Assembly (NCBI GenBank): GCA_963924565.1
Contig: OZ004614.1
Location: forward strand, 3,720,001 to 3,784,000
Direction of reading: 5' to 3'
Length of the DNA stretch: 64,000 nucleotides
DNA from: Ascidiella aspersa
Lineage: Eukaryota
The position numbers and the translations under genes are program-made. Below are positions 16,703-56,500 of the stretch, piece after piece; position 1 is the first letter of the stretch, and each line of letters starts with the position of its first letter. The notes below the pieces were generated by a model. That model did not search any database. It was not told the DNA's origin and worked only from the letters and a program-made list of their open reading frames with translations.

Positions 16703-19700
16703 GTTTGATTGTGTGAGTTTGTTTTAGTGTGTTTGTTTGTGTTTGTGCGTGAACGCGTGTGTGTGTGTGTGCATGTGTGTGTGTATTTGTGTTTTTGTTC
16801 GTGTATGTTTGTTATTTGTGTGTGTTTATGTGTATTTGTGTTTGTTTGTGTGCGTGCGTACGTGCGTGTGCTTGTGTTTGGTACGAGTTCTATCTAAATA
16901 AAACATATGTATTTGTTGAACACAATGAAGGTTGAGTACTGTATTTTAAACAAATACTTTTCACCACCAGGGGGCGTGGTCGCATGAGTCGAGGTTCATT
17001 TCTTCTGGGCAGCCTCGCGGTGTCGCTGTTGTGCTTGGACATCTGCATGATTTTAAGTGAGGCCGAGTTCATTGTGAGGTCACCAGAGGGCTGCGTGGTC
17101 ATCGCCGTGTTCATCCACTATTTCCTGCTGACGTCATTATGTTGGATGACCGTTGAGGCGGTTACAGCCTACATAGCAACTTCCTTTGTAAGTTTTAACG
17201 CTTAAAGAGTTTTCTTCCCCTAAACCAGTGTTTCTTAACCTTTTATGTGACGCAAATACTCACCGTAAGTATGACAGCGAAACTTTGGCGACCGAATTGT
17301 CTTAAACTTTGAGAATTCGAACAAAATAAAAGCCATTTTCAATTTTTATTTCGCTTTTATTTCATACGAGTCATGTCTTTCTATTGCTTCTACCATTTTA
17401 TCGAAGTTTGCGGAATTTTGCTCAGAATCAATCTCAATAAACCTTAACCATATAAAACTACTGCAGTCGGTGACCAAAACGGAACCACGCCTAATTTGGT
17501 TTCTTAACTCACAAGTTAAGAAACACTGGTTTTAACTTTAAAGTACATTCTTTTCGTTTAAAATTGGTGGTTTGGCTTAGATTAAGTCATTCATTTAGAG
17601 CCTGTCTTAGAAAAAAATATCATTTTATATACTCGGTAAGGGTGAAAGAATAAAAAATAGCGGGGAAAGTATGTATCCTGTGCTTAACTTTTTGTTGATT
17701 TGTTTTCCAGCCGTTTTACATGCGCGCTTTGTCCAGCATGCGGATTTACATCTCGTCGAGTTTATTCAGTTGGCTGCTACCAGCTGTATTTGTGGCAGTA
17801 CTTCTGGCTGTTGACCTGTCCTACTACGAGAGACAAGATGACACGTAAGTTGGCATCCAGGGGTAGCCAACACGTCGATCATCACATTTCACCTGGTCGA
17901 TCGCGTCGAATATGTGTTACGTCATTACATTAGCTGTCGCGCACAAGCGAAACATTAAAATGACCAATTGTTGTCTGGACAAGCCTAAAAAGCGTTCCTA
18001 ATTTACCTCCATCGCTGGCTTGGAATGCAATTAACGCTCAAAATGTTTAATAAGTGTTCTTGTTTTACTGAACCAGTCGATCGAGAGTCTCTAAAAATAT
18101 TTCAGTCGATCGTAATCAAACATAAGTTGATTACTCCTGGATAGCCTAAATATGATAAACATATTGAAAACCTCAAAACGTTGGTAATAGTTTTAAAAGT
18201 CCTGATCTACCATAAGAGGAAAGATCAGAAACACGTGAGTTGCAACCTGAAAAAGTGCAGTAAAGGAAAAGCGAAATAAATCCAATTGTACGTTATTGAC
18301 TTTGGAACTTTACTAGTAGCGAATTGGAAAGATAAGATTTTTTATCAAACTAAATCATCATTTACAAGTTAAGCTTTTTTTAAAGCCTGTCGTTATAATC
18401 TTTCTATAGGCGTTTTTTAATCTATACTTAAGAAAACTATATTAAGCTAAAAAATAATATTGCTTCCATTAATAAATTGTTTAAAATATATATGTAGTTA
18501 CTATATGTAGTTACAAGTTACAACAAATATTTATTTAAGTCACTTCTTTTCCATTTTTCAAGTTTTACTGACTATGTGTTAACTGTATTTATATTGTTCA
18601 GATGTTGGATTGCAGATGACTACATCTTATATTTTTCCGGCATCCCGTTCGCAGTTATAATTGTGGTCAACATGGGTTTGTACATCGCTGTAATGCATGC
18701 GGCATTTACAAGCAGGAAGTTAAATACAGTAAGTAAAGTCAACAGATACAGTACACCGAATAAACGTAAAATGCCGTAAAGCTTTTCATGTGAAATTTTC
18801 GTCCGAGCAATTAAGGTTTTTATAGCCAAATATAAATTCAGCCATGTAATCCACATGTGTATATATTGTGAACAGCCCTGTTGACTTGTTACCACCGAAA
18901 ACAAATTAGGGCATGGCCTATACTTATAACAATATACCTTTATTAATGATTGAGCCAAACATATTTCAGTAATAGCCTTTCTAAATGGTACCCGGTATAG
19001 GATAATATCAATCGCGACAGATTGGCCTAAAAAAAACGGTAAAATTTACTTGTTTTTGTAGAGAAAAGATAAAATGTAGACACAATTGACCGTACCCCAT
19101 TGTACAGATGTGTACCACTTGCAAAGCCGACATAGGGATCAAACATAATTCAAAAAGCAATATTTATATCATTCTGTGACCTTTATTGTTTTGCGAAGAT
19201 ATTTTAACCTATAGTATAGTTCTGAAAACTCTCATTTTTGATATTTTGATTCATATTTCATATTTAATATTTAAACTAAATTGTTTTGTTCTTAAATGTA
19301 ATACACCACATGGTGAAAAACATCTTTCAACTTCTTGACGTGTTTTGTGGATATTACAATAAAGGATATTATAATAAACACCTTATACTTAGTTTCTTCC
19401 TTAAATCTTATATAATCCATGTTGATCTAAACATCTATAATTTAATTGTATTTTGTTCTATTTTGCAGCGAACAGTTGCGAATCGCAGTCGATACAAGAA
19501 GAACGCCTTGCTGTCCCTTAGCTTCTTCGTGTGTATGGGAGGAACTTGGCTGTTTGCCCTCATACTCGTGTTCGACACTAGTGGGGGCACCGGAGCAACT
19601 GTGTTTGCCTATCTCTTCGCCATATTCAACTCACTACAAGGTAAAACAATAGGCTACACTTTCATAATAATTCGCTATATTCAACTCACTACAAGGTAAT

Positions 19701-20724
19701 ATAACACAATGTTATAATAGCTCGCCATATTTAACTCACTAAAAGGTAATATAATACCGTACCCTTACATTAGTTGTCGTGTTCAAATTAATTCAAAGCA
19801 GTTTTCAAGGGAGTCCCAATCAAAACATATGCAAAATAAAGTCCAACACTAGTCACATGCTAAAATAGCAAGTCAAGTCCAAGTCATGTCCTATGCTTTA
19901 AAATAGGATTTTAAATGATTAAACATGGTAAAATCATGTCATAAAGAACGACATTTCTATATTTTCACATGCAGAAATAGGGTAAAAACAAATCAAATTT
20001 TGCCAAATTATTTTATGAAAACACCCCAATGACCAAACGACGGCTTACTATTTAACAATAGCTTACAAATTTAAATATGTTTTGTAAAACATTCAGTTAT
20101 AGTAGAGATATAGGACATTTTTAAATATAATAAAATTCAAGTCGGACGTTAAAAATGCGTAAGATTGAAAACGTTCATGCTTTGTCAAACTTTTGAAACC
20201 TTCCAGTCTTATTCGTAGCAAGAAAATCGATAAAGTTTTGTGTATGATAATTATAAGACTTTTTCCTTGTTGTTTAAAAAAAAAAACCTCCATTCTTCAT
20301 TTTCAGCAAAATACTCTAGCAAGCTAGTAATTCAGGTCAGACACAATAAACGGATCTTGAAAGATATATATATATTTCGCCAACCAAGGCATCGTCAGTA
20401 TATCTTAATTCGAATGAATGCATATCTTTTAAGATCTTTTTATTGTGTCTGACCTGAATTGCTAGCTTTTCTAGAACATTTTGCTGTTACTGATCAGGAA
20501 TTAAGGTCGACATCTATCTTAAAGGGTCAAGGTGATTTCAATTATAAACATATTCAGTGCAACATTCTTCATTTTCTTCATCATTTTTAGGTCTTCTGCT
20601 CTTCATTCTTTATTTCATCCGAGAGAAGATATTCCAAAGGAAACTGAACTCTCTTGCATCTGACACTTTTCGTCTGGACTTCAACAGATCGGAACTTCGA
20701 CCGGAATACAACAAAAACGATTGA
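408..20724 (+). CDS. Adhesion GPCR A (ADGRG-like; mucin-EGF-like-HRM-GAIN/GPS-7TM), 16 coding exons, ~846 aa
   Basis: Exons: 408-528, 2246-2728, 3699-3812, 4409-4497, 5336-5497, 7592-7674, 8599-8711, 10462-10617, 13827-14002, 15620-15772, 16126-16232, 16971-17187, 17711-17844, 18602-18728, 19469-19640, 20591-20724. All introns GT-AG, phases compatible, total 2541 nt. Signal peptide MVHLCRFAVAVMLLFTAIVEA; (EPTTP)n stalk; HRM-like CPKD..F..T..G...TC..YGTRAC..GAW..C; GPS CSYW..WSQAG..TCESDHL|TNFAALF; TM3 HYFLLTSLCWMTVEA; TM7 YLFAIFNSLQG; ends ..NKND*. Confidence 0.92.
1158..1480. repeat. Inverted pair of a dispersed repeat (AAAGCCCATACAGAAGTAGG family)
   Basis: 1158-1234 is inverted at ~1402-1470. 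Further copies at 33752-33925, 38796-38883 and ~61660-61740 (reverse). Confidence 0.7.
1831..2202. mobile_element. hAT-type MITE
   Basis: TIR CAGTGCTCTT...AAGAGCACTG; 8-bp TSD CACTGCAT/CACTACAT; homologous copy at 55531-55906. Confidence 0.85.
2335..2550 (+). repeat. Coding 15-bp minisatellite encoding the (EPTTP)n mucin stalk of GPCR A
   Basis: About 14 units of GAACCAACCACACCA and variants within exon 2. Confidence 0.9.
4730..4882 (+). mobile_element. tRNA-derived SINE with near-intact cloverleaf head
   Basis: A box TAGCTCAGTTGG, B box GTTCGAACC, acceptor stem GCCTGCA/TGCAGGC. Body shared with 23096-23240, 27703-27896 and ~45745-45990 (reverse). Confidence 0.8.
5515..5864. mobile_element. 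hAT-type MITE (CAGGGTTRCCAG TIR)
   Basis: TIR CAGGGTTACCAG...CTGGCAACCCTG; TSD TTGACTTA/TTGGCTTA. Confidence 0.8.
7830..7922. mobile_element. 93-bp hAT-type MITE (internal-deletion derivative of 39564-39793)
   Basis: TIR CAGTGTTTCTTAAAC...GTTTAAGAAGCACTG; perfect TSD GCTTAAAT. Confidence 0.85.
9207..9538. mobile_element. hAT-type MITE
   Basis: CAG...CTG ends; perfect TSD AGTTAGAC; homologous to 21598-21929 and (reverse, partial) 14022-14310. Confidence 0.85.
12219..12484 (+). other. Candidate cryptic or alternative terminal exon (C-type-lectin-like C-terminal half) in GPCR A intron 8
   Basis: Acceptor ctctttgacaag|GA is phase 1, matching the exon 8 donor. Open frame GASIMPMWEGGLLNPDKSKHSCMEI...VNYKQKTVNAFVCCPANTYCP*. 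Confidence 0.35.
13140..13186. repeat. (TCTAGC)n microsatellite running into an assembly gap
   Basis: Hexamer repeat directly adjacent to N-run 13187-13347. Confidence 0.9.
14022..14310. mobile_element. Partial hAT-type MITE, reverse copy of the 9207/21598 family
   Basis: Starts CAGGGGTTCTTAAACTGGGGCCCATGGACCC, the reverse complement of the 21598-21929 right end. Confidence 0.7.
15620..15772 (+). other. GPS motif exon (autoproteolysis site HL|T and Stachel start) of GPCR A
   Basis: Translates VNQSNPYLRENTLCSYWHNDSWSQAGMRLVELTQDSVTCESDHLTNFAALF. Confidence 0.9.
16496..16880. repeat. (GT)n and degenerate GT-rich microsatellite
   Basis: Long TG dinucleotide tract next to gap 16340-16495. Confidence 0.95.
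17226..17528. mobile_element. Probable hAT-type MITE
   Basis: TIR CAGTGTTTCTTAAC...GTTAAGAAACACTG; no clear TSD. Confidence 0.65.
19617..19755 (+). repeat. Tandem triplication of the exon 15 3' end plus splice donor (GPCR A)
   Basis: TTCGCYATATTCAACTCACTACAAG|GTAA recurs at ~19617, 19671 and ~19721. Confidence 0.85.
20304..20486. repeat. Foldback/palindromic element
   Basis: Long imperfect inverted repeat AGCTAGTAATTCAGGTCAGACACAATAAA...TTTATTGTGTCTGACCTGAATTGCTAGCT. Confidence 0.8.
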
Positions 20725-21015
20725 GGTTTTTGCTCGGACAGTTTTCTGGATCTCCGAACATGTTCACGTACACACAAGGCTGCAAAACTGCAACTGTTTT
20801 GAGAATATTCAAATAAGTTTCACAGTGTTTCTTTGCCCCAGGCTGTTTGCCGAAAAACTGTGTCAAACTTCATTTGGTGCAAAATGTTTTTGCCCCCTGC
20901 TTATTTGTTATTAAGCCTATTGAATCCTAACTTCTTGCTTTGCAAGCATAACCACATAGAAGGGAAATCGGACTAATTGGGAGGCCGACAATATTCGAAA
21001 ATTTTTATGCTAGAC

Positions 21016-21512
21016 CAGTGGTTTCCGAGATTCACGAATAAACTAAGATTATCGCATTTTAATTATACAGACACTCGTGGTTGTCAGTTTAAATGTGCTA
21101 CTTTTTTGTATTTAGGTCGACCACAGTATTACATTTGAAGTGCCCTAAGTTTATATAAATGTAGAAGTAGTTTAGAAAAATTATTGATTAGGGTGAGTGT
21201 TGAAAAAAATTCGGGTTATATAAGCTTGATTAGGAATGCTAAAACGTTATTCCGATACCGCTACCCGATAAATTGTACAGAAAGTATCGCAATCTGATAC
21301 CAAATAACATTATTATTGTACTTTAGCAATCAAGATAAACAATATTAAAAACTTAAAACATGTTTTTAGCTAATAACTTTTGCCGTCGTATTAAAATTTG
21401 CGTTAACGTTTAAAAGTTGTTAATTTAGCCTACTATGTGTTGATAAATTTAGAAAATCCTAACCTTGATAACGTTTCAAAATGGGTCGGTGACAAAAAAT
21501 TTGAAACCACTG
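21016..21512. mobile_element. hAT-type MITE downstream of the GPCR A stop
   Basis: TIR CAGTGGTTTC...GAAACCACTG; TSD TGCTAGAC/TGCTAGAT. Confidence 0.75.
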
Positions 21513-21597
21513 TGCTAGATAGTAGCTGTTTGTAATGTTTGTATAAAGAGCTGTTCGTTTGACCAGTTTGCTCTTTTCGACGTTAATTGTTTTAAAT

Positions 21598-21929
21598 CAG
21601 AGGTTCTTAAACTTTTTTTACCGCGGACCCTAAATTTTTTTTGCTTTGCATGGACCCCGGTAGGCGAGAAATGCTCCTAAATGATGTCATAATATGACGT
21701 CACAATACAAATAGACTCCATAATTCTGTTTATTTCGGTCCGAAAAATTTGAAAGTTGAACGGAGTCTAACTATACATTCAGTGCAAAACCGTTCAATTT
21801 TTAATTAAAGTGTTTTCTTTGAAAAATTAATTACTTCTTAAGTATACACTGGTTCTTTAATTAGGCCTTCATGGACCCCAAAAAACTAGACCCCCAAGGG
21901 GTCCATGGACCCCAGTTTAAGAACCCCTG
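21598..21929. mobile_element. hAT-type MITE
   Basis: TIR CAGAGGTTCTTAAAC...GTTTAAGAACCCCTG; TSD TTTTAAAT/TTTTAGAT. Confidence 0.85.
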
Positions 21930-22249
21930 TTTTAGATGCTTATGCTCTATGGAACGTATTAGATACGTTGAAACAAAAAAAAACTTAAAAACTTACTAAT
22001 AAGATGCTAAACCGAATTACAAGCTTATACATTTAGGCAATTAACCACTGTTGGGCCGTAGTTTTAATCTTAACTTTCCTCTTTTTGAATGACTGATGCC
22101 TTTATTGATTTATCGTGTTTATAACTTGTTATTCAAAGGCTTTATGTGATTTGTAATAAACTTTTGCTGGGCGCTTGAAGCATAAAGGCTGAGGATTGTA
22201 GTTGAACTAGAATACAAGCAACTTCCAAAGAAAAGCAGGGAGCATTTTG

Positions 22250-23095: not shown

Positions 23096-23240
23096 TGCTT
23101 GCATCATTGATCGACAGATTCGGAGAGTCTGCAATGGCTTTCGGTGTACTAATGATATGTAAGCCGTAATTGTTGGTCAAAAAGCAGCTTCAGAAGGGCT
23201 AGATTTCGGTTGTTAACACACATCTGTGTTTTCATGTTTC
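23096..23240 (+). mobile_element. 5'-truncated SINE ~300 bp upstream of the GPCR B ATG
   Basis: Body matches the 4730 SINE family; 13-bp TSD ATCTTTATTACAA (23083-23095 / 23241-23253). Confidence 0.85.
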
Positions 23241-29500: not shown

Positions 29501-32500
29501 TGAAGTTGACTTTAGACTTCTTGTTACCTTCAAGGCCCGTTTACACTACAGCTGCACTGAGCAGAGCAAAGCGTAACTTGCATTTAAATTCTATTGTGGC
29601 GAGCGTTTCACGCTTTGCTAAACCCAAGCCCCGTGCAGCTATAGAAAAACGTTACGTTTTGTCGCGATTTTTACGCCCAGCGCAGCTCAGTGCAGCTGTA
29701 GTGAAAACAATTTCATGCCCAGTGCAGCTCATCTCCGCTCACTGTAGCTGTAGTGTAAACGGGCCTTAACCGAAGAGTTTTATTTTAAAGCTGCCTTTGT
29801 CTAAATCTGCCTTTATTTAGAGATTTAAATGAGGTGTTAAGGCTGTCCGAATGCTTGTGGTACAACAGTGGCACCTCATACTCCGTTAAAAAGTTCTCGT
29901 TTAGGAAGGTTTTTTGACTCGTTGCAGAATTCTCGAGACGTTGGACGCAGTTGGAGAAAAGGTTGAACTTGAAGAAGGCAGTGAATACCAAGAAGTTACG
30001 AGCACAGTCGCCATCGCTGTTGTAGAACCAACGCAAGAAGGTGGGTGTTTTGCCCTGATTCTAAAACTGTATGCCGCGCGTAACAGGGCTGTGTAGTCGG
30101 TTTAACATAACCCGAGTTGGACTTCGGCCAAAACAAATATTACTCTATAGCTAGCAAAACAAACCGACTGCGTAGAGGTCCAGAGTACAGAGTCCGACTC
30201 CGGCTAAATGTGCGATTTTTTTCAAGTTCGACTCTACAGTCAGCATTTCACCCATTAACGTAACTAAAATAACGTGGACATTAAGCAATTCAATCATAGG
30301 GGTGTCATATGACTCACCCACCTGTCTAAACGGCGTGAGTAAAGTCTATAGTCATTATGTTAAGAAAAACGAAATCAAGATTGTGTTTAAAAACAGTGAC
30401 TTAAGTGCACTAAGTCAAGTCGTTAAATAAGTCTCTACAAGAATGGTAAGTGACAAAAGGACAAGTATCCGTACTTTAACTTTTAGATGCGGTGTCAGCA
30501 GTTGGTTAAGACTAGTCATTTAAAAAGGGTGACTTAAGTGCACTAAATCAAGCAGTTGAATTAAGTCACTAAAAGATTGCCAAGTGACGAAAATACATGT
30601 ATGATTACTTCAACTTTCAGACGCGGTGTTAGGAGTTGGTTACGGGGTTCGAGCTTTGTCAACTTCCCAAGAAGAAGGATTCAGATCGGATCAGTTGCAA
30701 TTATTCAACGGGAATCCTGATGGGGATTTTTCTTCCTACATCACTGTTCCATTTGCAGCTAATAATCAGAATAAAGGTAAGAATAGAATATGAAATAAAA
30801 ACCAGTTACTGTTACCTGTGTAAACCAACGGTATCCAAACTTTTCTAAAAATTTGCCTGGTGGACCCTTAAATATTATTTTGATATTTCGCGGCCCTATA
30901 AAAATCAAAGAATGCTATAGAAAAAATGCAAAATCACACCAAAGAAAAAAAACAAAAACTATCAAATATGCTAAACGTTTAATGGGATGGGTGCACTTGT
31001 TTTGCTGCATTAACTCATCAATGGACCCGAAAAGCTTTATTATCGAATCACAATTATTGCTGTAGCCTATGTATACATTGCAAACCCTCTGAAACTGCTT
31101 GAAAGCTTTGAAGACTAATTTCTCATTGCGGACCCTCTGAAACTGCTGTACGGACCCCAGTTGGTCCACGGATCCTAGTTTGGGAACCGCTGGTACAAAC
31201 GAACAACGTGTGATAAATAGAATTCACTATGAAAGGCTTTGTGGCGAGCGTTTTTGGTAGGTCGTTATATGTGATTATCAGGGGCGGATCAAGCGGTGGT
31301 GCGGTCAATATTTTCATATTCGGATTAATATTTAAACTTTAAAGGAACGACAGTTAGTTGATTTAGCATCTCGTGCTTTGTAAAGGCTATAGTTTCAGCG
31401 CCCTTTAGTTAAGCTTAACTTGGTAATATTTTACTTTTGAAATAAAGTAAGGAAAACATCTGCTAAACAAGGCAAACGAGTGTAAACTTAGCCGTATAAA
31501 TGACACGGTACGGACATGACGTAAATAAAATAAAGCTTATTAAATGCTGTTGAGCATATCCACCGTTACGTTAGCTTCACAGAAATGTGAAAGGCGGTGT
31601 GCTGTGTAAGCCAGAGCGGGTCTTAAAACCAACAATGAAACTAAAACGAAATGAAAATGGTAAATGTCTAACAGAAACTTTCCAGTGTCCAATATTGAGT
31701 TATTGCGTTTTGTTTCTTAAAACCGTTTTACTTGTTGTAACTGGTGCTACGACAAAAGGTTTTGTTCAGTCGTAAAAGTGCCACCTGACTGTTCTTAAAT
31801 AATAAAAAAAAAATAAGAAACAGAAACAAAATGCAGCTTTGCAGTACAAAACAGGGGCGGGGGTAACCAAACTACGACCCGCGCCCCAGATGCTATTCTT
31901 TGGCTTGCGGCATATTGCCATAGTGAAGATAGAAAAATCTAAATTTTGAACTTAACGGTAATTGAAAAAAAAAATGTTTAGGTTTCCTTATTTTCTATGA
32001 TAATAAATCAAGTTTACAGATTTCGACACAAAATTGCATATCCGGTGCGGGATTGTCAATCTTTTTGAAAACCCAGCCTTTAACGAAAAAAATTTGTGAA
32101 TTCTGATTTTTTTGTTAGTATAATTGATTTTTTATTATTATAATAAATATAAAACTATCGCAACCTCGTTAATTTTATGCTTTCAAGGAAACTCTGTCAG
32201 TCTGAAATTGACTTTGAAAGTGCTTAAACAGAGATAACATCTTACAGATAAATGTTTCAGATTTTATACGAAAAATGCTAGCATAAGATCTACCTTTAAA
32301 ATATTTGAATTTGCACAGAACCCAATTGAGAATGCTTTAACATAAGAGCGATCTAAAAACTAGCTTTTTTGTGAAGATTTTCGCACGAGTTTCTACGCGT
32401 TCTCCGACGATAGTTTGTTCCAAAGCAGCAAGAGTTCCAGCCTTAAGTTCACATCTTTAGTCGTGCTTGCTGCTACTGTGGTGGGAGAAAGTAGCTTCAC

Positions 32501-35500
32501 AACTGAACTCCAAAACCCTGTCGTCATTAAACTGGCTCTACAGAAACTGGTTTGTAATGCTTATATAATATTTAAAAAATAAAATTGGTTTCAAATTGAT
32601 TTGAGTCATTTTCGAATAAAGTTTTGAAAATGCGTAAAAAAATGCCTTGATTGTACTTGATTAAAGTGTTTGGACATAGAACTCAGGTCTTTGGAGCAGG
32701 CGTAAATGTTAAATTGCTCCGGCTCCAGCTCCTGAGCTTATTAATACCACTGCTCCGGCTCCAGCTCCGGCTCCATTACATCAACAATTGAGGTTTAAGG
32801 ATAAACGCTAAATTAGCAATATCTAGCGTTTCAAAATAATCACAAACAAAACACCACAATAAAAAAATTCAAAAAAAAAACACCACAATGGTTACTTAGA
32901 AAAGGTGGCGCCAAAAAGAGGCAACAATTCTTAATTTTGTAAAGGGTTGCTGTTGAACTATGTGACTTCAGCCATTAGTAATAGCATAGCATCTTATGAA
33001 ATACATCGGATCCGGAGCTATTTTTTACACAACTGCTTCAGCTCCTGCTCCGGCTCCGTTTGAATTTTACGTAGAGCTCCGGCTCCAGCTCCGGCTCCAG
33101 CTCCGGCTCCGTTTCAAATGCACGGCTCCGGAGGTCCGGCTTCAAAGCCCTGATAGAACTTGCTTTGCAATTAAGGCATTTATGCCAAGATTAAACTACT
33201 CTTAGGTTTTTCAATTCAATTTTTTTTCCAAAATATTGACATTTACCTAAAATTTCGATGTCTAAAATGTGTTTGCGATTTGCTTCATTTTTGTTGTTTT
33301 CTATGCGTAATATTGCTTTGGAAGACCTTACATACTCTTTTTAATAGTTCAACATTTATTTGTAATGCGAAATGGACTTGATATTTATTGAAAATGGGTT
33401 GACTTGGACTTCAATCATTTTTAAATGACTTGTTTATAATATTACACTGATATTATATACATTCTAAAATCGTTTATAAACGGGCCTAATAAAACAAATC
33501 AGCTGCTAAACTTGGTGTTACTTTTGTTGTTTAAATTGCAGATTTAATTTAATATCTTTTTCTTTCCAGGTCAGCGAATCCAACCCGTATCTTCGCGAGA
33601 ACACACTGTGCAGTTATTGGCACAACGATTCGTGGTCTCAGGCGGGAATGAGGCTTGTTGAACTCACTCAAGACTCGGTTACATGTGAGAGCGACCACCT
33701 CACCAACTTCGCAGCTCTTTTTGTAAGTTAAATATAAATTAGAATGTATATTGTAGTAAGGATATCAAAGCCCATTCAGAAGTAACGTTTCAAATAATTT
33801 TTATTCATTTTCAACATAAACTACTACGTCTTACCACAACCTCCAGGAATTATGCTTTTAAGTGTATCGTAGTAAGAATAACAAAGCCCATACAGAAGTA
33901 GGTTTTGAACGTTTCGAATAATCCCTTATACTTTACCGCTCTTTTTGTAAGTTTGATAATTGCCTAAGTTGTACGTTTTAGTCACAAAGGCAGCAGTTGT
34001 GAATTTGTGGTCTCTATAGGTTGTATAGGTTCTAGCGCTAAGTTTTTTGTAAGGTTTGCCAAAGCTGAAGATTTTTGTTGTCATGTAAAAGTTCCCAATA
34101 AAAAATACATGTTATTCGTCTCTGTAAAACAATTGCAGTAATGACTCTAGTGCAGTGGTTCTTAACCAGGGTTCGATTGAACCCTTGGGGTTGGACGAAG
34201 CTGTTTCAAGGGATCGGCGAGAGCGTCCTCTGAAACATAAATGCTATTATTTCAAGCTAAAATCGAATCTCTTTTGTGTGCCAAGGTGTCACGTAACGTA
34301 ATAAATTAAAAGTTCGGCCAATTTAACCTATATAAATGCAAGTTTATAATTTGATTATGCCCAGTTTCAGCTGCTAGAAGGAAGAAACTAAAACTGAGCG
34401 AAAATTTGGGGTTCGACGAACGCTTGCAGAATAACGTAGGGGTTCGACAGGTTGCCCAGAGTTAAGAACCACTGCTCTAGTTGTGAACTGCCGTAGCAAA
34501 ATTGAAATGTTTTTACAGTATTATACTGAGTACCGAACATTTCTTCTTACTAATTTCCGATATATTTTAGGACTCTATAAATCTAATGCCTGTAGCATTT
34601 GACTTAATACTTTTGCTGAGGAGCAAACACAAATAGAAAAACGTTACTATTTTTCAGAACCCAAACTTCGCCGAATCACGGGCACTGGACATTGTTACAA
34701 TGGTCGGATGCTGTGTGTCCATAATATTTCTCGTCGCTTTGCTTGCACATATACTGATTAAAAAGTAAGTTAAACTCGTTTTTCAGCACACATCAAGCTT
34801 TTACATTTTTGTTTTAGTTTACAATATTTTATGGAATAAATTACGCTTGAAATGCATCTTCAGCCGCTAGTGTTCATACCAGCTTGTCAAAACAATGCTA
34901 GTTCTCTATTAAAAGGAACCACCCACTTTTTGACTCAACCCTTTAAAACGTTTTCTGTTTTTTATGCGGCCACAAAACAAATGCCTACCACGGTAAAAAT
35001 AAATTAGTAAATAAACTGCTACTCTTATCGTAGCTTGATAATAAAATTCGAAGCCCATAACTTTGAGAAGATCACAATGTTCGGGGTACCAGTTACTAAA
35101 ATAAATAAGCATCGTACTTTTCTATAGACACCATACAGGTTAAGTATTTCAGGGCTAAACGCTCAGTTGGTTCAAATTGATTTCGAGCGACGAAAGAAAT
35201 GCAATTGTGTCGTAGGTCGAAGGTAAAAATATCGACATCACCCTGATGCGTTTTGATACGTCCTTGTATCAACATCAGTTAATGTTAATTGTATTTTAGT
35301 CAAATTTACTGATCATGAAACCAGAGCGTTTCGAAACATCTTAATCAAGATGACGTCGATTTACTCGATATTTTGGCTTTGTAATTTATTATCAAGCTAC
35401 ATTACAGATCAGCGCATAGTGAAACTAATCATATCATCTTGTCAAAACACTGTTTTTAAAACTTTTTTTTTTTTTTTAAGTTTTATATTATTTGCTTCAT

Positions 35501-38500: not shown

Positions 38501-41491
38501 ATTCCGTTTGCAGTAATCATCGTGATCAATATGGGGCTCTACGCTGTAGCTATTCATTCTGCCTTTAAAAGCAAGAATCTTTCTGCCTCTGTAAGTCAAA
38601 TTATCGATTTTAAAGTTTGAATTTTCTTTTAGCAGTTAAAAAGCTCTTAAGCTGAATCGCCCCTGATAAGCAAAAAAACAAAAACAAATTCGTTTTATAA
38701 ATGTGTAAAGCACCTTTTATTCGTCACCGGAACACAATGTTGGGTTATAAATTAAAAATATGCGAAACGAACATGGGAGCATAATGGTTGTAAGCTGTAG
38801 TAAGACGTAATTAGAATATCAATGCCCATACAGAAGTAGGTTGCATTTTGAACTTTTCGAATAAGTCTTTATTCATTTTCAACCTTCTATGTTTTATAAA
38901 TGTGTAAAGCACCTTTTATTCGTCACCGGGACACATATTCGGTTATAAAACAATAGTTCACTGCGAATAATAATTATTTGTTGGCCAACACAAAGTGTTA
39001 GCAAGCAACAATCTTACAAAGTTGTTCAAACTGCGGCTGTCCGACATATTTTCTAGCTCATTTAGAAGGTTTACTTCCCAATTTGTAGGTGGCAATACCT
39101 AATATCTGGCTTATAAAAAACGGATTCGTTTTAAAAACCTAAAGATCCCATCCGATGCTGAAGATGTAGAATTTCTAAACAACATAATGGCAAACGCAGG
39201 TGGATTCATATCTTATACAAATGAATGCAAAACGATGTTATTAAAAGAGAAACAGAATCAGTGTAAATTATAGATTATTGCTAAACATTTACAAGCCAAA
39301 AATAATGCAATCTTCTACCCCGAAAAAGAAAGAAAAACTAACTGCCGCAAGGAAAACACAATTAAACAAGTCATAAAGCACTTATACCAAAATGTGCAAG
39401 GTAAACACGTTTTTAGAGCCTGTACTAACCTGGATTATCCAAACATTCATAATAACTTTTTTGTTAAAGCTCTGTATTTGCCTGATTATTCACCAAATCA
39501 GAACAATGTTTCACTGTCACAATGGTTCGACGAGCTGCTTTGTTCAAACTCTATGTGTTAGCACAGTGTTTCTTAATCAGGTGAATGGTTCACCACGGGG
39601 TGAATATAATTTTTGCAGGGGTAAACCAATTAAAAGGAGTGAAATGTCAGAAATGGAGGATAGCTTGTGAAACAATCCAAGTCATTTTGTGCTGTTATAC
39701 ATAGACGAGATATTTTTATTATATCATGATACAAGGGTGAATGAAATCTGGAGATAGATGCTAGGGATGAACAAAACTAAAAAAGAAGCATTGTGTTAGC
39801 ATATTGTTTTAAATTTGTGTTGGGGCACCAACATTAGACTACTTTGGCGTCCCTGGCTTTAAAAAAATGCATCATACTGTAATCCACTCAATGTAGCTCT
39901 TTATGAAACGACTGAACTTGAAACACAGCTCGCTAGCTGAAAAGTTTATCCAGTGTAGTAAATAATCATTTTTTGAAATGCCAAACCATGTTACATACCT
40001 TCAGTCCTTTACCTATTGCTTGATCGACCTATTCCATTGCTAGGTTTACCTATTTACCTGTTGATTGTATAAGGTGTAAAGTGTATCAGTAGTTAGTAGA
40101 CTAAAATGTTTCTAAAAGTGCCAGACTTTATTAGAAAAGCAGATTTCTGCATTAAAATAATCCGCTATTAAACGTGTGCCCTGCCGAGCGAATAGTGTCA
40201 TTACATAGAATCCGTAAATTATTCAAGCTATTAATGCTATGTAGTACAACTTTTTTTAATTTTTTTATTTCAATTTTTTGCCAGCATCGTGGCGCCTCTA
40301 AAGCTTTGCGGAGCGTTCAAACTAAAAAAAATGTTTTGATGTCCATGAGCTTCTTCGTGTGTATGGGAGGAACTTGGTTGTTCGCTCTCATCCTCGTTTT
40401 TGACACTAGTGGGGGCACCGGAGCAACTGTGTTCGCCTATCTCTTCGCTATATTCAACTCACTACAAGGTAATATAACACAATGTTAGAGTAGTTCGCTT
40501 TATCAAACTCACTACAAGGTAATAAAGTATACAACATGTGAACACCATTATTATAGTTCGCCGAATTCAACTTACTAAAAGTTTATTAAATATTCACTAT
40601 TATAATAGTTCGCCAGAATCCACTTACTATAAGGTGATAAATTATACACTATTATAATGGTTTGCCAGAATCCACTTACTATAAGGTGATAAATTATACA
40701 CTATTATAATGGTTTGCCAGAATCCACTTACTATAAGGTGATAAAGTATACACTGATTATTTCGCTATATTCAACACACCTTAACAAGTTGAAACACTTT
40801 ATCGAGATTTCTTAATCAAGATGATGGTCTCTTATACGTTTGAGTAAAGCCCAATCGTTTTTTTCTTCAATTCACTGATAAGATAAAACACAGTTAACTG
40901 CATATTTTCTTTTTTGAACTACAAATATATTTCACTTAAAAAGTGAAAATGATTATAGATGTTTGCCCTGTTTAAACCAATTCGTTATGTGCAACTAAAA
41001 CGAAAGTAGAATTGTTATGTTTGAGAAAAACGTGACATATCCACCAGTAAGGAAGACAGCTTCTAAATAATAGGTCTATTTCTGAAACCAATATATACAA
41101 GGTCTCGCCTAAAAGTCTTGTTAAAAGTATAAGCAACTAACTCGAAATGCGAACGAAGAGGAAATTTTAACATTTTTAAGCATCCTCCGAGGACCATTCA
41201 GTTTTCTTGAGAAAAGGGGACAAATCCTCCTAAAAGAGTACACATGGTAGGCCTAATTACGAGGCTATGCAATTTGAAACAAATTTACTTTATATAATTT
41301 GGATTTCTACCGTTGCAGGATTTTTTCTCTTTGCCATTCATTACGCTCGTGAGAACATCTTTAAACCGGAAAAGCAGAGTAGCAGCAAGTCTTTCGGAAC
41401 TGAAACCTACCAGCTAGAGAAGGTCTCCGGTGCAACCTCGCACAGTCACGGGACTCCTCAGCCTGTGAATTTTCAACCTACAAATGACTAA
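23544..41491 (+). CDS. Adhesion GPCR B (tandem paralog of A, long Ser/Thr/Ala/Asn stalk), 16 coding exons, ~1286 aa
   Basis: Exons: 23544-23670, 24261-25973, 26436-26564, 26974-27062, 28245-28406, 28848-28930, 29928-30040, 30621-30776, 32377-32549, 33570-33722, 34658-34764, 35534-35768, 37683-37816, 38461-38590, 40285-40468, 41319-41491; total 3861 nt. Same intron phases as gene A and same GPS (CSYW..HL|TNFAALF) and 7TM motifs. The exon 3 donor (G|GTTCAA) and exon 9 acceptor (AAG) are weak. Confidence 0.92.
24452..25795 (+). repeat. Coding 15-bp minisatellite encoding the (STTAA/SNTTA)n stalk of GPCR B
   Basis: About 90 units of GCGTCAACCACCGCT / GCGTCAAACACCACT variants in exon 2. Confidence 0.95.
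26632..26948. mobile_element. hAT-type MITE
   Basis: Right end GCCGCGGCACCCCGGTTAAGAACCACTG; perfect TSD TTTTATTC; relative at 47904-48226. Confidence 0.8.
27265..27565. repeat. Degenerate ~165-bp tandem duplication
   Basis: ATAATGCGTAT...GAGCCGCCCTGTT...AGAATATTACTGTTATA occurs twice. Confidence 0.7.
27703..27896 (+). mobile_element. 5'-truncated tRNA-derived SINE
   Basis: Starts in the tRNA 3' half (GAGGTCGTGAGTTCGAACC); 14-bp TSD ATTGTCTGTGACAG (27689-27702 / 27897-27910). Confidence 0.88.
27903..28071. repeat. Foldback/palindromic element
   Basis: ACTTCAGTCGACATCATCAACTTTCAATG...CATTGAAAGTTGATAGTGTCGACTGAAGT inverted repeat. Confidence 0.8.
29533..29766. mobile_element. Palindromic MITE, PIF/Harbinger-like TIR
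   Basis: TIR AGGCCCGTTTACACTACAGCT...AGCTGTAGTGTAAACGGGCCT, TAA-like flank. Confidence 0.75.
30396..30645 (+). repeat. ~134-bp tandem duplication containing the exon 8 acceptor of GPCR B
   Basis: TACTTTAACTTTTAG|ATGCGGTGTCAGCAGTTGGTTA (AG ends 30486) versus TACTTCAACTTTCAG|ACGCGGTGTTAGGAGTTGGTTA (AG ends 30620). Confidence 0.8.
32684..33152. mobile_element. hAT-type MITE with (GCTCCR)n subterminal repeats
   Basis: CAGG...CCTG ends; perfect TSD ATAGAACT. Confidence 0.85.
33570..33722 (+). other. GPS motif exon of GPCR B
   Basis: Translates VSESNPYLRENTLCSYWHNDSWSQAGMRLVELTQDSVTCESDHLTNFAALF. Confidence 0.9.
34153..34474. mobile_element. hAT-type MITE
   Basis: TIR CAGTGGTTCTTAAC...GTTAAGAACCACTG; TSD CTCTAGTG/CTCTAGTT. 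Confidence 0.85.
36706..37184. mobile_element. hAT-type MITE with ATCTAGA-rich interior
   Basis: TIR CATAGTTTCCATT...AATGGCAACTATG; TSD-like GGCGTGAA/GGCGTGCG. Confidence 0.75.
39564..39793. mobile_element. hAT-type MITE
   Basis: Perfect TSD TGTTAGCA; both ends homologous to 7830-7922. Confidence 0.85.
40444..40780 (+). repeat. ~52-bp minisatellite derived from the exon 15 3' end plus splice donor (GPCR B), ~7 units
   Basis: Units start near 40444, 40494, 40557, 40609, 40661, 40713 and 40761; most retain AAG|GT. Confidence 0.85.
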
Positions 41492-50293: not shown

Positions 50294-52130
50294 TTTAACA
50301 GTCCTTTATAGCTATAAGAGATTACAAGTGTTTAAAGGTCTAGATCTAGAAGAAAAAATGCTGTGATTATTCTTTAAAATATTAGTATATTCATTTTGGA
50401 ATACAATCCACGTTCCACGTTTTTTAGTAATTCAAAAAAATATATACTATTCAACAGAATCAACATTTCGTTATTTACAAACCTTCAGGAATATATTTCG
50501 TGCCATTATAAGGCAAGGTAAAAGCGATAAAACACAAAAAAGAAGAAAAAGAACAAAGGTAACAGCAAAAGAAGGCGATGTAATATGTCAGTTAGGTGTA
50601 AATAAGATAAAAAGGTGCCGATGTGGTGTCGATGTTACGCTCTGGTAAAACCACACAATTCGATAAAACAGAAACCAAATCTGCGACTTAAATTATCAGC
50701 TCAATAAATATAGTAAACTATCTGTCAAAATTTTTAGCAGTTAAGGTACCTCGCGCAAAGTCAAGTCTTTACAACAAATGGTGAAGCATCACATATCAAC
50801 ACAGCCGACTTTTAAACATATTTCTAACGCTTCCTAAGCAACTATAGCACCTCCAGCTGTAAGAACGTTTGCTTATAGGCTGTGCTGAAAGGCATTTATC
50901 TGCACAATCTGCCGACTCATTACCGGTAGATTCAAACGCCTTAAGTTGCTCCAGGCTGTTGTGGCTGTGGTTTTACGCTGCACACGTGATTATGGACAGA
51001 GGAAAGTTCTTGGAAATTGACAACGGCTAGAACTTTTAGATTACATTCGTACTTTAAACTACAAGCACGTTTCTGCTTACCTTGGTAGGGCTTTTTCCCA
51101 CCCTCGCGTAATAAGTACATAGCAGGAATTAGGGAATTTTTCAGGCTCAAAGGCACCAAGCATACGATAGCATGATGTGCGTACTGCGTCATGTATCCTT
51201 TGATTGTTCAAAATCAAACGTGTGCAATTTTATCCAAAATCATTAGAAGGGAAAAAATAATGGAGTTTTAGACGTTTATTCCCGGTTGTGTTGGTAAATT
51301 TTTAATTGTGTCAGACCCAGTGTAATTTTATAATCGTTTAAACTAAAAGTAAAAGTTATTGGAAAAATTATTTAAATTAGTCAAAAAGCCTTGAAGCTAA
51401 TTTCCCTGTGTTGTCAAGGTCAGAGTCAAGGTTGCGCAAAAGTCGTGTTGCGACATTCCTCGCGTGCCCTATTGTTACGTCACAGTTTGTAAACAAGCTG
51501 CCGACGACTGGGCAGGTCCGGATTAGAAAAAAAATATTGCTGTTAACTGCAAACTCTATACATTAAGCATAGTTGAAATACGCCTTGCTCGCACTGCTTA
51601 GCGGCAACACCATTCCATAACCCAAGTTAAATTAATGATTTTGTGTTTGCCATTACTTCGGACGCAGCTTTCCCAATCAAAATTCCGTGATTACTTAACT
51701 TTACTTTTTTAACAGTCATGCAATGGGCTACATTGAAAATTCAGTAAGGTTTAATTACGTTTTGCTGGCATTTTAAATCAAATGTAACCTAACCAGAACT
51801 TTGCCTAAATATATCAGTTTTTACCTTTTAGCTCGTGACTGACAGCAAATTTATTTTGTAAAGCACAAGTACTTTTTTGCTTAACTTAGTAGAAAAAAAT
51901 TGTGTTACTGTTCTATACTGCCTTGGCCTCCAAACGCATTGCTGTAATGTGCAAGTTTTGTAACAAGTTCAAGCAAATTCAACCTTAAAAAAAATAATAT
52001 CTCGATACTGTGTCTATACAGTCCGAGTTCTTATCATTCTTACAACCCTAGCCTTACCGCAATTTCATTCTGTAAAGAACAAGTAATTTTCCACTTTACA
52101 GCAATTCGTGATCTAGCCTCATGTACTTAC

Positions 52131-52250
52131 CAGCAACAGCTGACGACTGATCACAAGCCAGCCATCGAAACCAGGGGATTCACCGTGACGTAACGGAAAT
52201 ATTCGGCGGCTCTTGATAACTCACGAGGGAAAGTACCGAATGCACTACGT
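52131..52250 (-). other. Candidate non-coding 5' exon of the Ig gene
   Basis: Strong minus-strand donor CTG|GTAAGT at 52131/52130 in a GC-richer patch. The Ig ATG exon is preceded by an acceptor (ctcttatag). Confidence 0.35.
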
Positions 52251-53572
52251 CGTTGAGAATGGAGCATTTCATTTGTCGGTGTGTGAAAACATTTCTCCTT
52301 TGGGGCATTGGCGTGATGTTGTAGTTGGACGAAGAATGGATATTGTATAAATACAGCTTCTCTAATAAATGTAATTCATAACCAACGTTTCAGCAACCTA
52401 TTCAAATCGCCTTTTTCAGGGTGAATGACAACGAACGGACCTAGTACAATTTATAGAAAACACACAGCGGAAAAAATGCAGAAAAAGACGCAAGAAATAA
52501 CATTCTTTCAATCAATACAGTTTTGCAATTTTTTTATTTAAATATATGCACCACAAACCAATGGGATAGACAAAAGAGGCGAGATAAAACACACAATAGA
52601 AGTTACGATTTAGCAGGGAGGCATTGAAAGACAGCTGGAGATTCGGGCTTACTTAGACTGGTCTTCAAAAGAGCCTTGTCCCTTTGCAGAGAAAGTCATT
52701 TATTTTATTATTCTTAGTGGCGATAAGAAGACGTTCAGATTTCAGTATCGCAAGATTGCATGATATTCACAAGAGTCATATCCGCTAAAGTTTCTAGCGA
52801 TTCGATAAAATGGAAACAATGTTGGCACACTTCCACACAAGCTAAATCACTAGCGAATTCAATAAATCCGCAAAAACCAGAAATTGTAAAAGAAATATTC
52901 TTGTTTTTCAACCAGATGATTTTTAGACTTTTTATAACAGCAGGTACAAAACATAAAACCATTTGTTTAATTTGACCTAAATATATAACATACATATTAT
53001 TATTACTTTAAGTATTTTATCACCTGAAATTCATAATATCAAAAGTATAATATTTAAATGCTCTTAAGTAACTGTTTTTAAAATGACTTGACTTTAAAAT
53101 ACGACTTGACGTATGTTAAAGCGCATTAATTAAATCATTTGAGTAAAATTACGTTATTTAGGTAAATTAATAAATGTAATAAATGTTAGTTTGTTATAAG
53201 TTTTGTTTTCTGTCTTTCCTCTGCGCAATATCGGTCAGAGTAAACGTGTTTACACCTTTTGTAAATTTAACATTAACTTTAAAGCCACTACTGTGACTTG
53301 AAATTGGTTTGCGTCACTATAATGACATTTGACTCGGACTTGATATTTGTTGAAAATGACTGGACTTTGGCTTAAGTTAGTAGACTGGACTTGGACTTAA
53401 GTTAGTTTGAAAATGACTTGACTGGGACTTAAGTGTTTTGCAAATGGCCTTACTGAGACTTAAGATCATTTTGAAATGACTTGTTTACAACCTGCTGCAA
53501 GGTTTGCAAACTATTCATGACAGTGCTAGTTTGCTTAACAAAATGCACCACGAAAACATATCTGGATGAAGT

Positions 53573-56500
53573 CTAACCCACATTTGCATAATCCTCGTCC
53601 AATTCATAAGGCGGCATTTCTTTTTCAACTCCTGCCTCTTTAAGAAACCGCCTCATTTCGATAATTGCCCTGTTCAGTTCAACGCTCACTTTTCGAATAA
53701 ACGGATTAAAGTCAAACTTGGCCTTTTGCCTTTTGAACATCCCAGTAAGGTCTTGACTGAGACAGGCGAGTCTCTCTTCCAAGTCTATTGGTTGTACGAT
53801 TTTGTTGCTGGAGAATTTGAGCATCTCCCTTGAACTTTCGATCGGGTTTTCCACAATGTCCTCGTAGTACATCACAAGTTTTCTCTTCGGGCAGTTCATC
53901 ACTGATCTTATGACCGTAGTCCATTCCTTGATTGGTTTCTGGATTGACTCGACCGTGATTGCTGCGAAAGTGTTACAAATTCACGTTTTTTTTAATTTTT
54001 TTAATTGATCAGAATCGGGAAAATGTTTTAGTAGGAAAAGCTTAAAGCAATGCCGACAGTCTATTACGCAAATCTCAGTCGATTTTGAAAGAATGAAACA
54101 ATGAAGCTTTGAAAAAGTTCACATTAAAATATGTTTATTGTTACGTGTTATGTATCACATATGTTATTGGCTTTAATTAGTTACTTCCATATGATTCGCA
54201 AAATTATTTTAAACATCCTTTAATACACGTCATTTTGCCATATACCTCGAACCACGTAAAAACATTAATGTGATATACAATGTAATATTACATACATCGT
54301 GCGATACTTGTGATTTAGATTTACAATTTTTGGCCTTAAAACTTAAATTTTCTTAATATCTATGTATTGAGCCAAAAGTTTAGCAAATTAGAACGACAAG
54401 TATAATAACACAAAATGAAAATGCCTAAATTACATTACATTTACAGTTACATTGAAAATTGTAGTTAATTACATCAATTACGATTACAAATTACAATTGA
54501 TCCAACTCTGGTCTACACCATGTAATTATCATAGGATCAATATTACGTGATTCATAATCACGTCATACAATCACATGATGAGTTTTCACGCGCTCACCAT
54601 GTTTCCCGTGCTTGAAGAGCTCGTGAGGAATGGAGCGCATGTGAAAGCCTCCTGAGTACATGAAGTTTAAGAAGGAGAGCAGGGCTCGGTAGGGATTCCT
54701 GATGAGAAGTATCACGTCGGGAGCGTGAGTCATGTTGGGCATCACGCCGGTGAAGAGATGCTCTTTCACGAACACGGTCTTTTCTCGCGAGGCCTCGCCA
54801 AGGTAACCTAGTAGGGAAAACAATCAAATTATTGCCGAGTTTTAAGTCTTGCTAAGCCAGCGGTTCTCAACCAGTGGGCCATGGCTCACTGTTAGGCCAT
54901 GGAAACTTTTTAGATGGGCCACAGACCAATTAAAAAAAAGCTAGATTTATTGAAGAATTTAGTTTCATTTGTGTCACTATACCTAGTTTTACAAAAATAA
55001 TGGCTTGGGGAGAAATCGAGTAGGAATGTAAATGAAACGTAAATTTATTGTTATATGCTCCGCTATATTTTGTTCTTTTGTTCATTCATCAAATTTATTG
55101 GGCCACAGAATTTTTGTGCAACGAAAATGGGCCACGAAAGGAAAAAAGGTTGACAACCACTGTGCAAAACGAATCAGGAAAGTCCGATACATTTTATTCC
55201 GATTCCAAAACGCTAAAGTGTTAAAATATTCGCTAGCCGATCTGATACTAAATGACATCAATACAATGCTCAAGCATAAATACAAAAGTTTAAATGGCTA
55301 AACGTTTAAAAGTATTTGTCGAACCCATATGATGGATGACATCCATATGTTATTTTAGTATAGCATCTCTGCCGATACCACAAGTATCGAACGAGTACTC
55401 ATACGACCAAATCGGGTATCGGCTTTAAAGCGATATTATTGAAGTCCATAATATAAATTATGGGTAAACTTCAACCATAGGTCTTTAAACTGTTTTTGTG
55501 GCTCACTATTCTAAATAGTATTTTCTAGGCCAGTGCTCTTCAACCAGCGTGCACGGTGCACCCTAGGGCGCACCAAAATATGCATGGGGTGCACCAGTAC
55601 GAAAGGGTATACAAGGGTGCATCACAAACTTTTGAATGAACCATTTTTTGTGGTGCAAGTTGTATTCCTGTGTTTTGTGAAAAGTTTGAATGCTGTATGA
55701 AATCCAATAGTACTTGCAAGCAGCCTGTAGCCATAATCGAACTCTCACCGAAAGTGTGTACAACTTAAATGACCTGATTATATTGATATACATAATGATT
55801 TTTCAATAGATTTTTATCTCAGTGTTATATTTATTAAACAGTGTGCATGAGTTCGACACAACAACTTTAAGGGTTCACAAAAACCAAAACAGGTTAAAGA
55901 GCACTGATCTAGGCAACATTTGTAGAGATGTGAAACTTTATTAAAAAAACACTATTATTTTTATAGATTAAATATTGTTAGCGATGCGAAAGTTGGCTCT
56001 TCCATTAAAATAATTTATCTGAGGGTAAATTGCGAAATTAGTTTCTTTAAGGAAACATTTCTAAAAATGAGACATTTTAACTTTTTACTGAGAAATGTTA
56101 ACAAATTTTTACTCTACAGCCGCATCACAACTACACCTTTGACGCAGAGTAAGTTATCGTTAAAGATGGTTGACGTGTAAATTTTATCAGAAATCAATGT
56201 TGTAACAAGTCATTTTGAAATGACTGAAGTCCCAGTCAAGTAATTTGTAAAACAAAACTTAAGTCCAAATCAAGTATTTGTAAAAAAAAAACTTAAGTCC
56301 CAGTCAAATATTTGTAAAAGAAAACTTAATATATAATTAGAGCAAGTCAATTTCAAGTCACCTTTTACGTAGAGTGAGTTATCATTGAAGATGCTTGACG
56401 TGTAGATTCCGCTTGCCTTCTCAAGAAGGAATCTCACCCAAGTGTTCCCGGATCCCGGGTAAGACACCAGGAGCGTCTTATCATGGGAGGAGTCTTTAGG

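Follow-up and report, generated by a model that had tools for sequence, protein, structure and literature searches.

Several human genes are described in one report (PMC1557585) as carrying minisatellites whose first unit lies across an exon-intron boundary, namely the 37-bp VNTR of F7 IVS7 and the repeats of 6-16, CBS IVS13, LAMIN B2 and PDGF intron 4, and pseudo-sites are spliced in two of these cases. A published genome-wide test of whether local duplications are enriched at exon edges was not found in the literature searched. The window analyzed here, a stretch of 64,000 nucleotides from Ascidiella aspersa, contains five exon edges that recur, together with their splice sites, within a neighboring intron (Table 1). 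These echoes are real copies of the edges. Most likely they arose from four unrelated local duplications that happened to cross splice junctions, and they likely persist because the intact site beside the exon remains in use. Since short local duplications are about as frequent elsewhere in introns, the echoes are most likely harmless remnants similar to those described in human genes.

Coordinate-based gene models gave intact reading frames of 846 aa for GPCR A and 1282 aa for GPCR B, with exon numbers that match those of the first-pass annotation. Pfam identified GPS and 7tm_2 exons in the GPCR genes, and WSC together with a weak Sulfotransfer_1 match in the WSCD gene. A scan for junction-spanning repeats at 83 curated edges (60 in A and B, and 23 in two minus-strand genes) flagged exactly five edges, at 28-69 bits, and none of the remaining edges exceeded 15 bits. 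These are the same five edges, in three genes, at which the first-pass annotation had reported duplications, and all five duplications are real. They represent four independent events that differ in anatomy, comprising an array, a target-site duplication, a tandem pair and a filler-split pair. Several echoes score as high as the corresponding real sites (for B exon 10, 6.1 for the echo versus 5.8). A candidate sixth echo at 48729-48945 was rejected as it starts ~26 nt inside an intron. Local duplication is also common away from the junctions, with 17 of the 22 local-duplication clusters in the gene span of the window touching no splice site and the same duplicate-insert-duplicate scars occurring mid-intron.

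Table 1. Echoed exon edges and associated features, in positions of the 64,000-nucleotide window
Feature	Positions	Strand	Details
GPCR A exon 15 (TM6-TM7 part of 7tm_2)	19469..19640	+	real donor after 19640
Gene A exon 15 minisatellite	19617..19754	+	echo donors after 19695 (+55) and 19745 (+105), both GT
Tandem duplication across GPCR B exon 8 acceptor	30386..30642	+	134 nt, 80% identity; echo acceptor before 30487 (-134), real before 30621
Left copy of 24-nt repeat	33706..33729	+	end of B exon 10 (GPS exon, 33570-33722) and donor at 33722
Rearranged F1 insertion (Penelope-like stub, direct and inverted pieces)	33730..33929		includes ~23 nt of unassigned DNA
Right copy of 24-nt repeat	33930..33953	+	echo donor after 33946 (+224); read as target-site duplication
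F1 insertion with 60-nt flanking direct repeat	38692..38949		mid-intron control case, no splice site
GPCR B exon 15	40285..40468	+	working donor after 40468, followed by unit 2 of the paralogs
Gene B exon 15 minisatellite	40444..40785	+	unit ends at +50, +113, +165, +217, +269 and +317; GT in 4/6
WSCD echo, 50-nt copy (86%) of exon end and donor	56134..56183	-	225 nt into intron
Filler between WSCD copies	56184..56360	-	one end of MITE-like family T and a short spacer; terminus near 56195-56204
WSCD sulfotransferase-domain exon	56362..56606	-	donor at 56362; donor position common to 11 paralogs
Second scar, at acceptor of the WSCD exon	56620..56749	-	21-nt direct repeat around 88-nt insert; insert holds perfect 21-nt inverted copy of exon (56533-56553 / 56641-56661)

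The exon 15 arrays in A, B and a third paralog located just upstream are one old minisatellite with a unit of ~50 nt. Each unit consists of ~24 nt of exon followed by 26-38 nt of intron, and the first unit spans the exon-intron boundary. Unit number varies among the paralogs, and two units of the gene B array are 100% identical. A common origin of the two exon 15 cases, which had been thought probable, is borne out by the alignment of units across paralogs, where similarity between matching units is 84-95% and unit 1 reaches no more than 80% with any other. The gene B array lacks unit 1, and its working donor is therefore probably a promoted echo. In the exon 15 arrays, only the upstream donor yields the intact frame. 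The likely course is that a ~50-nt duplication crossed the donor in an ancestral gene and that slippage or unequal crossover then lengthened and shortened the resulting array. In gene B, a crossover joining the end of the exon to echo 1 would have taken out unit 1 and left the protein unchanged. An exon 15 unit with differing letters, which is not assignable to a single paralog, is present in sequencing run X2.

At B exon 10, the echo likely reflects a 24-nt target site that was duplicated when a Penelope-like element, of a family that we refer to as F1, inserted. Staggered nicks made during insertion of the stub probably copied this site, which contained the donor. Direct repeats with at least 10 matches flank 23 of 76 F1 copies versus 2 of 76 swapped-flank controls, and at a threshold of at least 12 matches the counts are 15 versus 0. 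These repeats are variable in length, and the long cases reach 60-90 nt. Corresponding counts for other families were 3/80, 0/10, 3/25 and 5/39, versus 3, 0, 2 and 2 in the controls. An alignment of 66 F1 copies and paired opposite-strand matches revealed truncated copies with an adjacent inverted partial copy. A strict minimal-hammerhead pattern was found in 16 of the 66 copies, 15 of these with U3-A8, and helix II folds in one copy; an Rfam hammerhead search of the window, with E up to 10, gave no match. F1 resembles the Penelope-like stubs described in PMC8557442, PMC4209133 and PMC9977147 in being short, truncated and high-copy (1,052 candidates at first look) with adjacent inverted partial copies, in its putative hammerhead-like U3-A8 core, and in flanking repeats of 10-15 nt and sometimes 24-90 nt. 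It differs from the Penelope-like elements in these sources in that neither a reverse transcriptase nor a GIY-YIG frame could be connected with it. Five open frames of at least 280 aa lie within 3.5 kb of F1 copies in the sample; three of them are the gene B mucin repeat, and the other two lay outside the domain scan.

The echoes of B exon 8 and of WSCD are isolated duplications that contain transposon fragments. At B exon 8, each unit of the tandem pair opens with a fragment of the MITE-like family T. The echoes other than those of exon 15 had been said to abut repeat fragments, which holds directly for B exon 10 and WSCD, but the fragment at B exon 8 is part of the duplicated unit itself and is separated from the acceptor by ~50 nt. 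In both cases a tandem copy was probably generated by break repair or template switching, with transposon DNA carried along or copied as filler. Two other readings were rejected. Family T is not a source of long target duplications, as only 1 of 101 copies has a long flanking repeat, and the WSCD spacer is not identifiable as the remnant of a plain tandem unit, as 376 of 500 random windows match equally well. No echo was found at the equivalent donor in any of the 11 usable WSCD paralogs (of 14 loci compared, one without GT at the position). The echo duplications did not create a new intron, since the intron positions are common to A and B and a GT is found at the equivalent place in the 11 WSCD paralogs.

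An alternative explanation is that transposons inserted at splice sites and that a functional site was restored either by the insertion itself or through later selection. This scenario is most nearly approached at the WSCD donor. Similarity of its intron to family T begins at base +2, where 15 of 32 alignments start exactly, and the real site scores 7.2 compared with 2.9 for the echo. In B exon 10 an element lies 7-30 nt behind the donor, but both copies of the repeat hold the full donor, and therefore nothing needed rebuilding. The rarity of long flanking repeats around family T copies also speaks against rescue, as do the exon 15 array, which is without a known repeat, and the five matches found outside the window (see below), none of which has repeat DNA between its copies. 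We regard rescue as very unlikely, and the proposal in the first-pass annotation that selection re-created splice sites after transposon insertion is not required. Selection is required only as a filter, in that the upstream copy retains a usable site.

Another possibility is that a mutational process favors exon-intron borders, either genome-wide or regionally, for example through breaks or template switches at structures linked to transcription or splicing. The comparison of edges with introns that had been proposed beforehand was run on 1.6 Mb outside the window (0.5% of the genome), with edges from a home-made exon predictor that had an edge precision of 20/26. Of the 16 dispersed 100-kb blocks, two consisted of repeat arrays and were left out. 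Echoes were found at 5 of 769 high-confidence predicted edges (0.65%). Among intronic first-copy controls, 95 of 17,051 unique sites and 188 of 23,931 sites overall had a duplication (0.56-0.79%); 24,000 of 76,052 available control sites were used, and the matches fall in ~175 bins and are not independent. Duplications were thus not commoner at exon edges than at unique intronic controls (Fisher p 0.62), which counts against a border-targeting mechanism. The edge/control ratio from a block bootstrap was 1.17 (95% range 0-2.9) with unique controls and 0.83 (0-2.1) with all controls. A wider edge set (8/1,217 with an echo), homology-anchored edges (0/77, the sole match being a GT microsatellite) and a relaxed test (11/769 versus 111/9,000) likewise gave no excess. 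Four further outside matches were excluded because whole exons appeared to be duplicated there, as confirmed by predicted exons for three and judged by eye for one, and keeping them left the comparison at 9/769 versus 162/17,051 (p 0.57). In trials with planted echoes, the scan retrieved 206 of 252. Corrected for precision and for this power, the edge rate is 1.0% (0.3-2.4%), and therefore duplications at edges could still exceed the intronic rate by as much as about three- to fourfold.

The window itself is rich in echoes. Four of its 83 edges carry independent echoes compared with the 5 of 769 outside (Fisher p 0.007), and of its 22 clusters about 1.0 would be expected to span a junction (0.49 without repeat-family clusters) versus the four independent cases seen (p 0.018). 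These nominal p values of about 0.01-0.02 belong to a window chosen after the fact, and ~55 of 4,821 windows would have at least four such events by chance if all were equally exon-dense. At the rate of the window ~23 matches would be expected in the sample, and 5 were seen. A regional process finds some support in the scars at both ends of one WSCD exon and in the distribution of the outside matches, all five of which come from two of the 17 blocks, including one that adjoins the window, with three lying within 7 kb on one strand of a single block. The window events also depart from the background in that 2 of the 4 have repeat DNA between the copies, versus only 4 of the 95 unique control duplications. 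However, intronic rates are also raised in both of these blocks (12/1,072 and 4/471, versus 95/17,051), and the four window events are anatomically unlike one another. A process that favors borders appears very unlikely. The abundance of short local duplications in this genome, together with the persistence of those in which a usable site remained, accounts in large part for the apparent clustering at splice sites.

Some echoes would, as the first-pass annotation suggested, give truncated receptors if used, judging from the predicted frames. Use of the A +55 site would produce an 844-aa protein in which the end of TM7 and the tail are replaced, with no stop before the last junction, and use of the B +50 site would place a stop 33 nt before the last junction; both products are predicted to escape decay. 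Use of the B exon 10 echo would stop translation at residue 964, just past the GPS exon. It has to be asked, then, whether echoes are retained as alternative sites for truncated or secreted receptor forms, and conservation of the first exon 15 units in three paralogs would fit such a role. Several observations point the other way. GT is kept in 2/2 echo units of A, 4/6 of B and 3/6 of the upstream paralog, a loss in 5 of 14 units (0/2, 2/6 and 3/6, respectively), and unit numbers differ in a set of paralogs of which the upstream one is apparently broken. The echoes of B exon 8, B exon 10 and WSCD and three of those of B exon 15 would lead to early stops well before the last junction, and all five outside matches shift the frame or carry a stop. 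Retention for such products is highly improbable. A broader version, also unlikely, is that echo arrays serve as spare parts and as a leak, in which a paralog swaps its exon end and donor for an echo with the protein unchanged, as gene B has apparently done, the first exon 15 echoes escape decay and give rise to adhesion GPCRs whose seventh helix is broken, and junction-crossing duplications in the region run at several times the genome average. Under the preferred explanation of harmless scars, the spliceosome would mostly ignore the echo copies and nonsense-mediated decay would mostly clear rare misuse.

Contigs from sequencing runs were compared with positions 48000-58400 (runs X1-X4) and 30300-41600 (runs X1, X2 and X4), and no exon-to-exon joints were found among the best 15 of 375 and the best 15 of 29 matches, respectively. 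An exact match to an exon of the Ig-domain gene (48971-49088) was obtained with one X4 contig, and X4 may therefore be RNA; among the matches listed, no X4 piece covers WSCD or GPCR B exons, from which no conclusion on expression follows. Contigs of X2 span the B exon 8 duplication, the B exon 10 insertion and both WSCD junction regions, and thus no empty-site allele was seen there.

The main value of this analysis is its negative result on splice-site targeting. Because echoes occur at nearly the same rate as intronic duplications, a duplicated splice site appears to be almost neutral in this animal. The donor of GPCR B, apparently replaced, offers a small and clean case of splice-site turnover by means of a repeat array, and the exon 15 arrays and the WSCD hairpin would lend themselves to natural tests of how an invertebrate chooses among splice sites.

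The echoes can be compared with several known systems. Both ends of the WSCD exon resemble break-repair insertions whose filler derives from neighboring direct and inverted sequence (PMC4056370) in their duplicate-insert-duplicate structure and in their locally copied or foreign filler, although the repair pathway at WSCD is deduced from anatomy only. Direct repeats that overlap splice sites are also found where introns were gained through tandem duplication or carry direct repeats at their splice sites (PMC2809761); in contrast to such gains, the introns here are old. The exon 15 units resemble the human F7 IVS7 type (PMC1557585) in being arranged head-to-tail, in joining an exon end to an intron start and in repeating the donor into the intron. 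For the human genes of this type, it has been demonstrated which site is spliced. Human units are identical at the site, whereas exon 15 units are 60-95% alike. Unlike the human arrays, moreover, the exon 15 array is common to three paralogs, in one of which the real donor has apparently been swapped for echo 1.

The first-pass annotation had described short intronic duplications, or echoes, of five exon edges together with their splice sites, and these duplications are real. A scan of 83 curated edges for ungapped copies across the junction, no more than 500 nt from the edge and with the GT or AG intact, flagged exactly those five: the exon 15 donors of the tandem GPCR genes A and B, the B exon 8 acceptor, the B exon 10 donor and a WSCD exon donor. 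Since approximately 500 offsets were tried per edge and the scores are 28-69 bits, no flagged echo is a chance match. The five edges represent four events, and the echoes belong to kinds already known; the observation is confirmed, but targeting of splice junctions is unsupported at this sample size.

The genome holding the window comprises 308.6 Mb in 75 contigs (features are listed in the table). The name WSCD, taken from the first-pass annotation, is supported by a WSC match and weak Sulfotransfer_1 matches. A third GPCR paralog, Z, with closely spaced matches to exons 5, 12, 14 and 15 only, appears to be deleted or broken. A and B are 88-95% alike in exons 5-10 and 72-79% in exons 11-14; ahead of exons 5 and 10 their introns agree at 35/40 and 38/40 nt, and other flanks are near chance. 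This uneven exon and intron likeness suggests patchy gene conversion between A and B.

Features in and around the window (window positions unless a contig of the assembly, G000, is named; L003, L004 and L005 are fetched loci)
Feature	Position	Remarks
Adhesion-GPCR paralog A	408-20724	846 aa
Adhesion-GPCR paralog B	23544 to about 41.5 kb	1282 aa; tandem with A
Ig-domain gene and WSC-sulfotransferase gene		minus strand
GPCR paralog Z	2-4 kb upstream of window (L005, G000:C8; also L003)	apparently broken
A/B near-identical region, exon 5 surroundings	5297-5509 vs 28206-28418	
A/B near-identical region, exon 10 surroundings	15572-15785 vs 33522-33735	
Exon 2 repeat, A	2334-2543	14 Thr/Pro/Glu units
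Exon 2 mucin-like repeat, B	24455-25796	Thr/Ala-rich; ~88 five-residue units
tRNA-like match (Rfam, 50 bits)	4731-4805	start of a dispersed repeat that is probably a SINE derived from a tRNA; similar pieces near 23096, 27697, 45770
F1 copy with 60-nt flanking repeat	38692-38949	mid-intron
20-nt tandem repeat	47201-47723	26 copies at 96%; Ig-domain gene intron
Perfect 21-bp inverted repeat, WSCD exon vs upstream intron	56533-56661	minus strand
Three partial echoes outside window	G000:C7:6020000-6028000	one strand, within 7 kb
Two partial echoes outside window	G000:C8:3825900-3848500	42 and 64 kb downstream of window
69-nt exons duplicated in tandem with their introns	G000:C6:6041000-6042200	run of exons
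Exon 15 last 54 nt + donor, 96% identical	L004:1501-1557 = G000:C4:31686456-31686509	another chromosome

At B exon 10, a 24-nt repeat lies on both sides of a 200-nt insert made mostly of pieces of the dispersed repeat family F1. Across 1.66 Mb, flanking direct repeats accompany 23/76 F1 copies vs 2/76 with swapped flanks (15 vs 0 at a higher cut-off), and four other repeat families gave little or no excess in the same test. The F1 repeats are mostly 10-15 nt, with some up to 60-90 nt. F1 also has a U3-A8 core resembling a hammerhead, and partial copies in inverted orientation, traits described for Penelope-like elements in PMC8557442 and PMC4209133; such elements leave target duplications of variable length, as PMC9977147 describes. 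Rfam gave no hammerhead match and no autonomous partner of F1 was found; F1 is likely to be a Penelope-like family. Given the flank excess, the Penelope-like traits and the variable duplications of such elements, the B exon 10 echo is best read as a target-site duplication with the donor inside the target.

The B exon 8 echo is a tandem duplication of 134 nt (80% identity) with no counterpart in A; each of its units opens with a short stretch of the MITE-like family T and runs ~22 nt into the exon. In WSCD, 50 nt of the exon end recur 225 nt inside the intron, and one end of a T element plus a short spacer lies between the copies, the T likeness beginning at intron base +2. The upstream donor, whose position is common to 11 paralogs, is the ancestral one, and the echo occurs in 0/11. 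Because just 1/101 T copies has such long flanking repeats, the WSCD echo is a one-off event, for which repair that copied in filler is the simplest account. At its acceptor this exon is scarred again: 21-nt direct repeats flank an 88-nt insert, within which 21 nt of exon sequence recur inverted and without mismatch. At Drosophila breakpoints, filler templated by neighbouring sequence in direct and inverted orientation is described in PMC4056370. With the exon sequence and its inverted copy paired, the 3' splice site would lie in a loop of 87 nt (fold z -5.4); no perfect inverted exon copy of at least 18 nt was found within 200 nt of any of 769 predicted edges elsewhere.

A mechanism aimed at exon-intron borders had been proposed, with a comparison of edge and intron duplication rates as the check. 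We ran this comparison on 1.8 Mb of the genome, minus two repeat-array blocks, using a simple trained exon finder; where two models called an edge, it was exact in 20/26 window cases, 9/11 homology-fixed WSCD paralog donors were recovered, and planted echoes were found in 206/252 trials. Outside the window, 9/769 predicted edges had a copy; four were whole-exon duplications, leaving five (0.65%), vs 95/17,051 intronic GT/AG controls (0.56%; unique DNA, first copy) or 188/23,931 overall (0.79%). The block-bootstrap ratios, 1.17 (0-2.9) and 0.83 (0-2.1; Fisher p 0.62 and 0.84), show no edge excess and do not bear the proposal out. Echoes were found at 8/1,217 edges of a wider set and 0/77 homology-anchored edges, and a relaxed test gave 11/769 edges vs 111/9,000 controls. 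After correction the edge rate stands at 1.0% (0.3-2.4%), and a real but modest excess, at most three- or fourfold, may still exist. The window rate would predict ~23 matches in the sample, where five were seen. The window itself, chosen after the fact, is above background (4/83 edges, p 0.007 vs the sample; given its own 22 duplication clusters, ~1.0 junction-spanning event would be expected, p 0.018), and ~55/4,821 windows would reach four events by chance if equally exon-dense. The five outside echoes are confined to 2/17 blocks, both also above average in intronic rate; local duplication is patchy.

By our own weight matrix, echo and real sites score 3.4-3.7 vs 3.7-4.4 (exon 15 donors), 6.1 vs 5.8 (B exon 10), 3.4 vs 4.9 (B exon 8) and 2.9 vs 7.2 (WSCD); some outside echoes equal the real site. 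The B exon 8, B exon 10, WSCD and three distal B exon 15 echoes are predicted to yield early stops and, if spliced, should trigger decay under the usual 50-nt rule. The exon 15 echo donors 55 nt (A) and 50 nt (B) past the real donor would, if used, escape decay and alter TM7; that at +105 in A would be borderline (49 nt).

The suspected common origin of the A and B exon 15 echoes holds: A, B and Z have the same array (seven units in Z), with matching units 84-95% alike (A1 and Z1, 95%; A2, Z2 and B1, 84-92%; B2 and Z3, 95%), and B4 equals B5. The array is therefore older than the paralogs or owes its spread to conversion; its length has changed since. No other unit is more than 80% like unit 1, which is absent from B; as the divergence of unit 1 from the rest exceeds that between matching units, it was more likely lost in B than recently gained in A and Z. 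If so, the working donor of B would be the former echo 1, with the protein unaltered. The exon 15 piece on another chromosome is a captured gene fragment, flanked by two copies, ~876 nt apart, of a segment duplicated locally. In layout the exon 15 arrays match the minisatellite of human F7 intron 7; there, as PMC1557585 describes, pseudo-sites are able to work yet the most upstream site alone is used. Among the other minisatellites discussed there, two pseudo-sites are used as well in 6-16 and CBS, and those of LAMIN B2 and PDGF are unused.
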